Positions 10,876 through 48,521 of a DNA stretch of 64,000 nt are shown here, piece after piece (positions within the stretch are counted from its first letter, which is position 1; each line of letters opens with the position of its first letter). Source of the DNA: an uncultured Planctomycetia bacterium (GTDB lineage: Bacteria; Omnitrophota; Gorgyraeia; 1-14-0-20-64-10); NCBI GenBank assembly GCA_964373805.1, contig CAYJWF010000001.1, positions 47,181 through 111,180 on the forward strand. Direction: 5' to 3'. The notes under the pieces were generated by a model. It ran no database searches and was not told the DNA's origin. It saw nothing but the letters and a program-made list of their open reading frames with translations. Both the position numbers and the translations under genes were made by a program.

Positions 10876-10947
10876 GGGGTCAGACCTGTACCAGGTACAA
10901 AATCGGCTCAACTTTTAAAAAGTTAGGCCCAAATTGTACCTGGTACC
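10876..10947. repeat. MITE-like palindromic element (GGGGTCAGACC + GTACCAGGTAC ... AACTTTTAAAAAGTT ... GTACCTGGTAC)
   Basis: Terminal inverted 12-13-mers around AT-rich central palindrome; near-identical copy at 48459-48521. Confidence 0.7.
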
Positions 10948-10963
10948 ATATAATGTCTCCTCG

Positions 10964-12634
10964 ATGTCGCTGACCCTCGTTGCGGGAATCGTTCTGATCC
11001 TCTTCGGACTGGCCTACTTGGGTTACAGCCGGCTGTTGGCCAGGAAAGTGGGCTTAGACGACGCCCAGCCGACCCCAGCCTGCACGATGACCGATGGAAT
11101 CGACTTTGTCCCGGCCAAGGCTCCCTTCCTGTTGGGCCAGCATTTCTCGGCCATCGCCGCGGCCGGCCCGATTGTGGGACCGATCCTGGCGGGGCTCTCC
11201 TTTGGATGGCTGCCCACCTTGCTCTGGATCGTTTTGGGGGCAATCTTTATCGGGGCGGTTCACGATTTCTCCAGTTTGATCGGATCGGTTCGTCATCAAG
11301 CACAGTCGGTGGCCGAGATCGTTCAGCGGCACATCGGCCAGCGGGCCTACCTTTTGTTCCTCGGCTTCATCTGGCTCTCCTTGGTCTACGTGATCACCGC
11401 GTTCGCGGATCTCACCTCCAGCTCCTTCGCCGAACCGGTCTACGGGGGCGGGGTAGCCACCTCTTCGGTCCTCTATCTCGGATTAGCGATTTTAATGGGA
11501 ATCCTCGTCACTCGACTCGGAATGCCGTTAAGAATCGCCACCTTGATCTTTATCCCGGTTCTGGCCGTGGTGATCTGGATGGGGCAGGCGGTTCCGATCC
11601 GATTGCCGGCCCTACCCGGGATCCGACCGGTTCTGGTCTGGGATGGGATTCTGTTGGGATACTGTTTCTTGGCCTCGGTGCTGCCGGTTTGGCTGCTCCT
11701 TCAGCCCCGAGGCTATTTGGGTGGAGTCTTCCTCTATACAGCGCTGGGTGCTGGTTTGGTGGGGTTGGCCTTAGGCGGGATGCGGGTCAACTACCCGGCC
11801 TTTATCGGGTGGTCGGGATCAAGCGGTTGGCCCTTGTTTCCAATGCTGTTCGTCACCGTGGCCTGTGGAGCCTGTTCCGGTTTCCATGGATTGGTCTCCT
11901 CGGGGACCACCTCCAAGCAGATCGCCAGGGAGAGCGATTGCCGGTCGATCGGTTACGGAGGAATGTTGCTGGAAGGGTTGGTGGCCCTCATTGCTCTGGC
12001 CACGGTGATGATGTTGGCCCCAGCCGATGCCGCGACCAAACTTTCGCCCGACCGGATCTACGCGCAAGGGTTGGCCACCTTCGTGGAGCAGTTTGGGATC
12101 AATCCCCAATTCGCGATGGCCTTTGTCCTGCTCGGCTTTGCCACCTTTATCTTCGACACCCTGGATGTGGCCACCCGTCTAGGAAGGTACATCCTTCAGG
12201 AGCTGTTTGGATGGAAAGGTTCCTGGGGTCGGATCTGGGCGACTCTGGTGACGCTCGCCCTTCCGGCCTGGTGCGTCACCGCTACCGTGACCGACGCCAG
12301 CGGGAAGCTCCTCCCGGCCTGGAAGGTATACTGGACGGTGTTCGGGACCTCGAATCAGTTGCTGGCCGCCCTTACCCTGCTGGGGTTGACAGCGTGGTTG
12401 AAGAAAAGTGGAAAGCCATGGGGATTCGCTGCGGTCCCATGCGCCTTCATGATGGGAATGACCGTCTGGGCATTGGGGATTCTGATTCAAAGTTGGTGGA
12501 CCAAAGGGATGGCCGGCCAAGGGGCCCTTTTGGATCCGGTGGGGATGGCTTGTCTGCTGCTTATGGCGCTGGCTCTCATTCTCTTTAAGGAAGGGATCGA
12601 GGCCCTTCGAAAAAGCGGATGCGTAAAGCCGTAA
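10964..12634 (+). CDS. cstA: carbon starvation protein A
   Basis: Polytopic membrane protein with CstA N-terminal signature; start moved to ATG 10964 downstream of the repeat element. Confidence 0.8.
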   Translation: MSLTLVAGIVLILFGLAYLGYSRLLARKVGLDDAQPTPACTMTDGIDFVPAKAPFLLGQHFSAIAAAGPIVGPILAGLSFGWLPTLLWIVLGAIFIGAVHDFSSLIGSVRHQAQSVAEIVQRHIGQRAYLLFLGFIWLSLVYVITAFADLTSSSFAEPVYGGGVATSSVLYLGLAILMGILVTRLGMPLRIATLIFIPVLAVVIWMGQAVPIRLPALPGIRPVLVWDGILLGYCFLASVLPVWLLLQPRGYLGGVFLYTALGAGLVGLALGGMRVNYPAFIGWSGSSGWPLFPMLFVTVACGACSGFHGLVSSGTTSKQIARESDCRSIGYGGMLLEGLVALIALATVMMLAPADAATKLSPDRIYAQGLATFVEQFGINPQFAMAFVLLGFATFIFDTLDVATRLGRYILQELFGWKGSWGRIWATLVTLALPAWCVTATVTDASGKLLPAWKVYWTVFGTSNQLLAALTLLGLTAWLKKSGKPWGFAAVPCAFMMGMTVWALGILIQSWWTKGMAGQGALLDPVGMACLLLMALALILFKEGIEALRKSGCVKP

Positions 12635-46679: not shown

Positions 46680-46705
46680 AGTTAAGCCAAAATGGTGCCA
46701 GGCAC
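46646..46705. repeat. MITE-like element: GGTGCCAGGCACC ... AACTTTTATAAAGTT ... GGTGCCAGGCAC
   Basis: Spans sdhD stop and sdhA start; supplies ATGGTGCCAGGCAC = MVPGT. Confidence 0.7.
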
Positions 46706-48458
46706 TGTTCATAGGTTTGATGGGGTGATCGTCGGGGCCGGCGGGGCCGGCTTAATGGCGGCACTCCAGGCCGGCGGCGGTGGGGTGTCCCCTTCAGGGA
46801 CGTCCCCGAAGATTGCGGTTTTATCCAAACTTTATCCCACCCGTTCCCACACCGGGACCGCCCAAGGAGGGATTGGGGCCGCCCTAGGGAATCTGGAAGA
46901 GGACCACTGGGAATGGCACATGTTCGACACGATTAAGGGAAGCGACTACCTGGCGGACCAGGACGCGGTGGAGATCATGTGCCGCGAGGCGGTGGACACC
47001 GTCTACGAGTTGGAGCACAGGGGGCTTCCCTTTAGTCGCACGCCGGAAGGGAAGATCGCCCAGCGGCCGTTTGGGGGCCACACCAAAGAGTTTGGCAAGG
47101 GGCCGGTTCGGCGTTCCTGCTACGCGGCCGATCGCACCGGGCACATGATCCTGCAGACGCTGTATCAGCAGTGCATCAAGCAGGGGGTCACCTTCTTCGA
47201 TGAGTTCCACGTGTTGGATCTCCTCATGGAAGGTGGCGTGGTGAGCGGTGTCGTGGCCATCGAGATCGCCACCGGCGAGCTGCACCTCTTCCATACGAAG
47301 GCGGTTCTCTTCGCCACCGGCGGATGCGGCCGGATGTACAGGATCACCTCCAACGCCTTGACCTTGACCGGGGATGGGATGGGGGTCGTGTTTCAACGGG
47401 GGATCCCACTTGAGGACATGGAATTCTTTCAGTTCCATCCGACCGGGATCTACAAGATGGGGATCCTGATCACCGAGGGAGCGCGTGGGGAAGGGGGGAT
47501 CCTCCGCAATCGAACCGGCGAGCGGTTCATGGAACGGTACGCCCCAACGCTCAAGGATTTGGCACCGCGCGATATGGTCAGCCGCGCCATGTACAAGGAG
47601 ATCCGGGAAGGGCGGGGGATTGATGGGAGCGATTATCTTCATCTGGATCTGACCCACTTGGATCCAAAGTTGATCCACGAAAAACTGCCCGATATCACCG
47701 ATTTCGTTGAGACCTATCTCGGGTTCGATCCGGTCAAGGAGCTTATTCCGGTGCAGCCAACCGCCCACTACGCCATGGGAGGAATCCCCACCAACTCCAA
47801 CGGCGAGGTGATTCGGGATGAAAACGGCGCCGTGGTCCCGGGCCTTTACGCCGCCGGAGAGTGCGCCTGCGTTTCCGTGCATGGGGCCAACCGGTTGGGA
47901 ACCAACTCTTTGGTGGACATCATCGTCTTCGGCCGGCGGGGGGGGAAGGCCCTGAGAGAATTTGTCGGGAAATCAAGCCTAGCGCCATCATTAAGGAAAA
48001 ATCCAGAAGAAGAGGCACGGACCCGCATCGAGGGACTTCTCCGGTCACAAGGAACGGAGACGGTGGCCCAGATCCGCGCCGAGCTCCAGGCCGAGATGAT
48101 GGACAAGGCCTCGGTCTTCCGAACGCAGGCCGACCTCGAGAAGGCCCTGGAAACGATCCGAGGTTTAAAGGATCGCTACCGAAAGGTCCGGTTGCAAGAC
48201 CAGGGCAAGAATTTCAATACGGAACTTCTGGAAGCGCTGGAGTTGGGGTATCTCCTGGATTTGGCCGAGGTGACCGCGACGGCTGCCTTGGCCCGTCAGG
48301 AGTCCCGTGGGGCCCATTACCGGGAGGATTTTCCGAATCGGGACGACGCGAACTGGCTGAAGCATTCCTTGGCGTTCTTGAGGAGCGACGGACGGATCGA
48401 CCTCCGGTATAAACCGGTCACCATCACCAAGTTTCCTCCCAAGGAGCGCACGTATTAG
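46692..48458 (+). CDS. sdhA: succinate dehydrogenase flavoprotein subunit
   Basis: GAGGAGL FAD motif, [15 protein letters not shown]; 588 aa. Confidence 0.9.
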
Positions 48459-48521
48459 ATGGTACCAGGTACAATTTCGGCTCAACTTTTTAAAAGTTAT
48501 ACCGATTTTGTACCTGGTACC
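48459..48521. repeat. MITE-like element (GGTACCAGGTACA ... AACTTTTTAAAAGTT ... TGTACCTGGTACC)
   Basis: Between sdhA stop and sdhB; near-identical to 10887-10947. Confidence 0.75.

Follow-up and report, generated by a model that had tools for sequence, protein, structure and literature searches.

Three copies of a 61-nt palindromic element, here called c1, c2 and c3, lie at gene junctions in the 64,000-nt stretch of contig CAYJWF010000001.1 that we have analysed (the window), and two more, L004 and L005, can be found on other metagenome contigs. The corresponding sites are empty in relatives, so the copies in the window are secondary insertions. One of them supplies the stop codon of the gene before it together with the annotated start codon of the gene after it, and one of the outside copies is read through in frame. 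We put the probability at about 60% that the element is a non-autonomous selfish repeat, of the type of repetitive extragenic palindromes (REPs) and their hairpin-forming doublets (REPINs) or of Rickettsia palindromic elements (RPEs), and that it spreads in trans by means of an enzyme that would be encoded elsewhere and would probably act on hairpins.

The 61-nt element and its five copies

A repeat search joins c1, c2 and c3 into a single 60-nt family, which bears out the initial annotation of this DNA in listing three related copies. That annotation gave them 60-70 bp; the size can be refined to 61 nt in all three, with c2 ending at 46706. The described architecture is also found as such, 13-nt palindromic arms (GGTRCCWGGYACC) and the core (AACTTTWWWAAAGTT) being kept in all three copies. 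Allowing at most 2 mismatches, the core AACTTTTWAAAAGTT occurs 3 times in the window where 0.07 occurrences are expected, and the arm motif GGTRCCWGGYACC 17 times where 3.8 are expected; the window has 13 perfect 13-mer palindromes centred on CWG, where Markov simulations give 2.6. The elements are AT-rich in GC-rich surroundings, as had been said: the copies in the window have a GC fraction of 0.39-0.46 (0.39-0.49 over all five copies), and the window itself 0.57. Identical sequences are present in independent Logan assemblies, for c1 in L011 (ERR4904390) and for c3 in L001 and L002 (ERR4904390, ERR4904391), and these two copies are therefore not assembly artefacts. Chance or artefact is excluded as the origin of the family.

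Each copy begins with a 13-mer arm, followed by about 4 A/T and 5-6 nt of variable linker, which lead to the 15-nt AT-rich palindromic core; past the core come a second variable linker, about 4 A/T and the complementary 13-mer. The starts of the two arms are exactly 48 nt apart in all five copies, among which there are no indels. The palindrome is imperfect and has a polarity, as can be seen from c2 and L004, which agree at 56 of 61 positions in one orientation and at 39 of 61 in the other. The copies c1 and c3, once described as near-identical, are better called similar: they agree at 54 of 61 positions when c1 is reverse-complemented and at 52 of 61 when compared directly. Relative to the host genes c3 points one way, and c1, c2, L004 and L005 the opposite way.

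The copies fall into two subfamilies: c1 and c3 have GGTACC arms, and c2, L004 and L005 have GGTGCC arms. Compensated changes in the arms separate the two, with 4 pairs altered on both sides. Arms and core are invariant inside each subfamily, where variation is almost confined to positions 18-23 and 39-43. The self-palindromy of the 13-mers is broken at their ends in c1 and c3, while complementarity between the arms is retained (G1-C61, A13-T49), which favours the long inverted repeat as the constrained feature. The central W is likewise complementary between the arms in four of the five copies. The termini are complementary over 13-14 bp in every copy, with one central mismatch in c2; this copy does share the architecture of the others, as first stated, but its 13-mers have the central A in common, so at that position they match directly and not as inverted repeats.

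All copies are predicted to fold into a single long hairpin, on both strands and as RNA or DNA. The predicted RNA hairpins have energies of -26 to -39 kcal/mol (z -2.9 to -10.6). For c3 the values are -39.1 kcal/mol and z -10.6; for c1, an 80-nt stretch that includes a small flanking GGGGTCAGACC stem gives about -34 to -36 kcal/mol (z -6.6 to -6.9). Outside the arms the flanks read AT...GTTTTY, AC...ATCGG or AT...GGTCTG, and L004 and L005, once set in the same polarity as c3, likewise have a GTTTTY tail. All six frames of the arms are free of stop codons, and on each strand every copy is open in one frame or more.

Further copies beyond the window are returned by a scan of a metagenome collection that does not contain the source genome: L004 and L005 are true copies, identical to c2 at 53-56 of 61 positions and located in unrelated contexts. 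The long, 61-nt form is nevertheless rare in public data. A pattern of core plus arm matches no true copy in 185,579 species-representative genomes, among which the source genome is not included; the one match obtained, L003, has the core and one arm-like sequence, and because the second arm is missing we judge it a chance match. There is no match in a scan of viral contigs, nor in a BLAST search of plasmid and phage collections with the element. When concatenated open-frame translations are searched against 5.8 billion proteins, the sole match is the transporter protein of L005 described below, so that either the family has few members in public data or its sequence is too short to give a score. 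A covariance model of the element (R1) likewise finds only short doublets, and no additional full-length copy, in the window, in 4-5 kb of flanking sequence from the same organism and in about 100 kb of relatives' contigs. A literature search on the 13-mers, and on palindromes in Omnitrophota, retrieves nothing relevant.

Insertion into tight gene junctions

The closest named homologues of SdhA (75-79% identity) come from metagenome-assembled genomes of Candidatus Omnitrophica/Omnitrophota, and the gene order queC-sdhC-sdhD-sdhA-sdhB is common to the relatives' contigs. The relatives with syntenic operons are 70-81% identical in protein sequence, and in them the three junctions that carry an element in the window (between cstA and the preceding gene of the histone deacetylase (HDAC) family, between sdhD and sdhA, and between sdhA and sdhB) are overlapping or 2-25 nt long. 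In L007, sdhD/sdhA and sdhA/sdhB are both 1-nt overlaps; in L006, L008 and L010, sdhD and sdhA overlap, abut or are 2 nt apart. The idea of a dispersed family of small non-coding inverted repeats is upheld, with the addition that its members were inserted secondarily.

The clearest case is c1. L012 has 10 nt between the HDAC-like gene and cstA and L013 has 25 nt, and in both the gap reads gcgatgtt followed by ATAATG. In the window about 79 nt have been placed exactly between these conserved flanks, consisting of TTGAC, GGGGTCAGACC, c1 and AT. The insert brings a new TGA for the HDAC-like gene, the former TAA still being present downstream. A target-site duplication can be looked for directly at such a site, and there is none, because around the insert the conserved flanks have 1 bp in common at most. 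Next to the other four copies no matching direct repeats are present.

At c2 the element has become part of both neighbouring genes. Its left arm and core form the last 11 codons of sdhD (MVPGTKTLKLL) and the TAA that ends them (46677-46679), and its right arm holds the annotated ATG of sdhA (46692-46694) and the codons for VPGT, so that SdhA begins MVPGT. The annotated start is backed by NCBI protein P0001, which is 100% identical over 588 aa. When SdhA N-termini are aligned, the extra 'VPG(T)' encoded by the right arm is seen in the window protein only. All three copies had been called intergenic, within or next to operons; the operon setting is correct, but c2 extends into both genes, sdhD at its 3' end and sdhA at its annotated 5' end.

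A similar arrangement is seen in L004, where the copy sits at the purD-purE junction and purD also ends at the core TAA (VPGTKTEKLL, then stop). The L005 copy lies inside a 399-aa open reading frame (ORF) of the MFS/ATG22 family (P0121), and the frame is open throughout the element. Aligned with ten homologues, the 22 residues that the element encodes make up the entire hypervariable central cytoplasmic loop of this protein.

The Shine-Dalgarno sequence is missing for all three genes downstream of the copies in the window, and relatives have one at these junctions. The reading of the sequence suggests that a 32-codon ORF running through c3 may contribute to translational coupling of sdhB. A terminator consensus scan finds no terminator-like site at c1, c2 or c3, a short GTTTTC being present after c3 only, and a promoter consensus scan at the three copies gives only a weak promoter-like match on the minus strand that touches the left arm of c2. 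No Rfam family matches anywhere in the window, and a tRNA/tmRNA search of the window finds none. Two candidates were considered and dropped: a consensus site for integration host factor (IHF) in the core, inspected by eye, where the matches are weak, and a split Shine-Dalgarno sequence bridged by the c3 hairpin, whose effective spacing, about 25 nt, is too long.

A wider family of 13-mer palindromes

The initial annotation regarded these repeats as modular, and this is supported in two ways: c1 adjoins a truncated GGGGTCAGACC unit, and arms of the GGTGCCWGGCACC kind are also found in short doublets that lack the AT core. Such doublets are common in this genome and in its relatives, often in frame within housekeeping genes, and the 61-nt element is the long form, with an AT-rich core added, of a superfamily of 13-mer-palindrome doublets. 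The spacers of the short doublets share ATTT at one side and CCAAAAT at the other with the long form, and this resemblance suggests that the two forms may interconvert by loss or gain of the core. Positions of these and other features are collected in Table 1.

Table 1. Copies of the element in the window, features adjoining them, and related palindromes (positions refer to the window unless a contig is named)
Feature	Position	Strand	Remarks
c1	10887-10947	-	GGTACC-arm subfamily; polarity opposite to c3; R1 80.2 bits (minus strand); stop of HDAC-like gene (10874) upstream, cstA ATG (10964) downstream
Inserted block 5' of c1	10872-10886	+	TGA (10872-10874), C and truncated GGGGTCAGACC unit (10876-10886) joined to c1
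c2	46646-46706	-	GGTGCC-arm subfamily
c3	48461-48521	+	GGTACC-arm subfamily; R1 86.2 bits; begins 2 nt past sdhA TAG (48456-48458)
T-rich tail GTTTTCGTACCGTTTTCCG	48522-48540 (19 nt)	+	From c3 to sdhB ATG (48541); includes tandem GTACCGTTTTC duplication
32-codon ORF (MVPGTISAQLFKSYTDFVPGTVFVPFSDASNL, then stop)	48459-48557	+	Runs through c3 and overlaps sdhB start
Doublet GGTGCCTGGCACC-ATTTCAGAA-GGTGCCAGGCACC	8274-8308		Without AT core; in frame in Redoxin/AhpC-TSA gene
Doublet GGTGCCAGGCACC-ATTTTCG-GATGCCTGGCACC	15493-15525		Upstream of flavin reductase gene
Doublet with GGTGTCWGACACC arms (GGTGTC type)	24533-24575		In frame, linker of NuoE-NuoF fusion ORF
GGTGCCWGGCACC doublet	L015 11958-11992		Same organism, just outside window
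GGTGCCWGGCACC doublet	L018 3140-3176		Same organism, just outside window
GGGGACWGTCCCC-type (GGGGAC) doublet	Window ~46781-46808; L006 3825-3861; L007 10077-10105; L008 ~4421; L009 ~2543		
GGGGTCWGACCCC palindromes, solo or doublet	6867, 7851-7884, 19837, 43586, 59322, 59346-59376		

Several of the doublets have been taken up into proteins. The one in the Redoxin gene (8274-8308) adds 9 residues (KVPGTISEG) in comparison with PDB structures 2cvb_A and 2ywi_A. The NuoE-NuoF doublet, read in frame as ..KTVSDTSQLREAVSDTT.., sits in a single 602-aa ORF precisely where the NuoE-like domain gives way to the NuoF-like one, and may have fused two genes. Of the two doublets just outside the window, in L015 and L018, one is between genes for an inositol phosphatase and a Ni-superoxide dismutase and the other is in frame in a NifU_N/FeS_assembly_P ORF. 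The doublet of the GGGGACWGTCCCC type lies in frame near the N-terminus of SdhA (..G.SPSGTVP..), is decayed in the window and is absent from L010. At the site upstream of the flavin reductase gene (15493-15525), L012 is empty and L013 carries a triplet of the GGGGTC type.

The 13-mers themselves form a series in which neighbours differ by one compensated pair: GGGGTC-W-GACCCC, GGTGTC-W-GACACC, GGTGCC-W-GGCACC and GGTACC-W-GGTACC. GGGGAC-W-GTCCCC is an additional type beside this series. The GGGGTCWGACCCC palindromes often have a TTTAGATTTTC-like tail, and a nested hybrid palindrome, ATCGGTGCCAGGTCTTAGACCTGGCACCGAT, is also found; this family is present in L008, L009 and L013 as well, with identical 32-nt doublets at two sites in L013.

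Across the relatives the same junctions carry different types of palindrome. GGGGTC doublets, for example, are located after the sdhA stop in L008 and between sdhD and sdhA in L009. Because different palindromes occupy the same junctions, these places are either hot spots of insertion, with earlier palindromes possibly attracting new ones, or the only sites where an insertion can be survived. The junction taken by c3 in the window and by a GGGGTC doublet in L008 has another occupant in L006, where a 165-aa ORF (5686-6183) lies between sdhA and sdhB.

Origin of the element and its place among known repeats

The initial annotation classed the copies as MITE-like, a MITE being a miniature inverted-repeat transposable element. 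Part of this comparison is apt: the element is small (61 nt), AT-rich relative to its host and without an ORF of its own, it has terminal inverted repeats, and relatives have empty sites. The part that is not supported concerns target-site duplication, which is absent at c1, and a transposase, which is not found among the scanned ORFs of the window, and the self-complementarity spans the whole element and not the ends alone. As for REPs, the inverted pairing of units into a larger hairpin is present, and no GTAG or CGTC tetranucleotide is found at the flanks of the element. Since no target-site duplication, no such tag and, in the ORFs scanned, no transposase was found, the element corresponds neither to the MITE of the textbooks nor to a canonical REP. 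In-frame read-through of the RPE kind is seen in the MFS ORF of L005 and for the doublets in Redoxin, SdhA and NuoEF; by sequence the element does not belong to the RPEs, as it is 61 nt long, comes from an Omnitrophota-like source and matches no Rfam family.

Other classes offer partial parallels. In the repetitive IHF-binding palindromic elements (RIPs) and bacterial interspersed mosaic elements (BIMEs) of E. coli, REPs are arranged around a central IHF site, and the present layout of unit, AT-rich middle and unit recalls them. The Correia (NEMIS) elements of Neisseria have inverted termini and an AT-rich, IHF-binding centre, form co-transcribed hairpins and can supply expression signals. They are 100-155 bp long with 26-bp terminal repeats and duplicate a TA target, and this length, these repeats and the TA duplication are all lacking in the 61-nt element. 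REPs are palindromes of 20-40 bp with a GTAG or CGTC tag, often found as inverted dimers, located after ORFs and sometimes intragenic (PMC3733652). The element resembles REPs, BIMEs and REPINs in that short palindromic units are paired in inverted orientation into larger hairpins (PMC3733652), and in being mostly found after ORFs between co-directional genes, species-specific, occasionally intragenic and without target-site duplication. It differs from REPs in its unit, a perfect palindrome of 13 nt instead of an imperfect one of 20-40 nt, in its 61-nt extent with a conserved AT core, in having no unpaired GTAG/CGTC tag at either end, and in that no gene for a REP-associated tyrosine transposase (RAYT) is present among the scanned ORFs of the window. 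RPEs, QMITE1 and the enterobacterial repetitive intergenic consensus (ERIC) are reviewed together as intragenic, MITE-like palindromic repeats (PMC10969869). The likeness to RPEs lies in the in-frame insertion into unrelated housekeeping genes, where the extra peptide is placed in tolerated loops or linkers (PMC10969869), here the MFS loop, Redoxin, SdhA, NuoEF and NifU. RPEs are different in being about 100-150 bp long, in occurring in Rickettsia and in having a sequence unrelated to the present family, of which one full-length copy in five is intragenic and the others are at gene junctions. We thus have a new family inside the known class of small palindromic interspersed repeats, and not a new kind of system.

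For the selfish repeat that we favour, the following course of events can be proposed. Copies would enter tight or overlapping gene junctions secondarily, copied in trans by an enzyme that is not encoded nearby. Because the element is a hairpin from end to end and leaves no target-site duplication on insertion, a hairpin or single-stranded form would be the most plausible substrate of this enzyme. Copies would survive only where the harm is small, as at operon junctions and in protein loops and linkers, and survival there would be helped by the stop-free arms and by the open frame that each copy has on each strand. An inserted element would then be co-transcribed and its codons put to use, as when the core TAA ends sdhD and the arm ATG starts sdhA.

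A number of observations weigh against this account. Five full-length copies are known, and any statement on abundance is extrapolated from about 70 kb (three full-length copies in 64 kb, none in 4-5 kb of additional flanks). The relatives with empty sites are just 70-81% identical in protein, c2 resembles a replacement (62 nt against 26 nt in L007), and the copy in the MFS gene resembles the replacement of a whole host loop. No presence/absence polymorphism is seen, as the Logan assemblies that cover c1 or c3 all carry them. A Pfam scan of 56 non-overlapping ORFs of at least 80 aa, which left out the 2835-aa ORF at 49638-58145 and a few short ORFs, finds no transposase, RAYT or insertion sequence (IS) in the window. 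In addition, the repeated occupation of the same junctions by palindromes could mean selection for a hairpin rather than hot spots, and the strong conservation of arms and core is equally compatible with a function for the host.

These last two points lead to the alternative that the copies are intercistronic RNA hairpins selected by the host, which would stabilise the upstream mRNA, set processing sites or tune coupling within sdhD/sdhA/sdhB and HDAC/cstA; similarity within the genome would then be due to gene conversion and not to transposition. The genes that flank or contain the five copies run in one direction, so all five should be transcribed; their predicted hairpins have great stability, the linkers are variable and the arms and core conserved, and other palindromes are present at the same junctions in L008, L009 and L013. 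The geometry at c2, with the upstream stop at the apex of the hairpin and the downstream start on its descending arm, is also of the kind expected for coupling. We still regard this alternative as unlikely. These junctions lack a hairpin in L007, L012 and others, which makes one dispensable; one copy is in frame in a transporter gene, and doublets are within the coding sequences of Redoxin, SdhA, NuoEF and NifU. Both polarities relative to transcription occur, the insertions removed Shine-Dalgarno sequences that relatives have, and there is neither an Rfam family nor a terminator-like signature. A classical MITE, that is, a deletion derivative of an IS with GGTRCCWGGYAC termini, whose DDE transposase would bind the 13-bp ends and leave duplications too short or too eroded to see, would account for the 61-bp size, the AT-rich interior, the inverted termini of 13-14 bp and the empty sites, and 'AT' does stand next to one terminus in four of the five copies and 'GAT' on both sides of the c3 block. 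But at c1, where the flanks are conserved in two relatives, their overlap of at most 1 bp leaves no duplication, the flanks of the other copies lack matching direct repeats, no transposase occurs among the scanned ORFs of the window or in the roughly 150 kb of related loci that were inspected, and the element is self-complementary over its whole length; such an origin seems to us quite improbable.

It is also conceivable, if very improbable, that the element serves as double-stranded DNA, as a BIME/RIP-like binding module in which two 13-bp palindromes are bound by a dimeric nucleoid-associated protein or regulator and a bendable AT core lies between them. Each arm is itself palindromic, the spacing is exactly 48 bp in five of five copies, the core is a conserved AT-rich palindrome, and one genome holds the series of 13-mers one compensated pair apart (GGGGTC/GGTGTC/GGTGCC/GGTACC). 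The constraint, however, is between the arms and not within them, as seen at the ends of c1 and c3 and in the central W, complementary in four of five copies. Copies are found in coding sequence and between unrelated genes that form no common regulon, and no candidate binding protein is known.

Going beyond the selfish repeat as such, one can tentatively picture the 61-nt element and the doublets as a single mobile superfamily of Omnitrophota-like bacteria, recognised by structure. Its hairpin enzyme would be other than a RAYT of the known tagged-REP kind and would prefer or replace earlier palindromes at junctions, and the inserted units would be absorbed into proteins and gene boundaries: they would have formed the NuoE-NuoF and NifU linkers, added loops to SdhA, Redoxin and MFS proteins, and donated starts and stops. 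As a joint claim this is rather doubtful.

The window contains other repeats and insertions as well. A different repeat of about 100-200 nt lies in frame in sufD (2344-2558, minus strand), where it includes a perfect 42-nt tandem duplication (2425-2508), and an inverted copy is found at 28867-28976 in an ORF for a NuoI-like ferredoxin; SufD and the ferredoxin share the inserted peptide EPRADARDFS.LAA.AAAGAVGSATTR. The small repeat GTCATTGCGAGGAxCGAAGTGACGAAGCAATC is located at 22632-22654, 27476-27560 (with a hairpin at 27482-27560) and 49224-49272, which are the nuoC/nuoD, nuoG/nuoH and post-sdhB junctions. SufB (3088-5574, minus strand) is split by an intein with a LAGLIDADG homing-endonuclease domain, and likewise in L013. 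A 48-nt direct repeat (90% identical; 31705-31752 and 33072-33119) surrounds a pair of ORFs that includes an AbiEii-type toxin, and several toxin-antitoxin pairs of the HEPN/nucleotidyltransferase kind are scattered in the window (~9101-9950, 40074-40499 and 58257-59007).

The element has practical consequences for work on such genomes. Palindromic repeats break short-read assemblies, and the Logan contigs of the source organism that were fetched are just 0.9-13 kb long; gene callers can also be misled on starts, stops and apparent gene fusions. Confirmation genome-wide would mean that an uncultivated and poorly studied phylum has a family of small palindromic repeats that had not been described before. 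It gives clean examples of a selfish hairpin that separates overlapping genes and yet donates the stop and start that keep both alive. With related units absorbed into housekeeping proteins, it also provides a comparison case for the literature on REPs, REPINs and RPEs, where the mobilising mechanism is only partly understood. If the reading as one superfamily is true, protein remodelling like that by RPEs would be taking place in a free-living candidate phylum.

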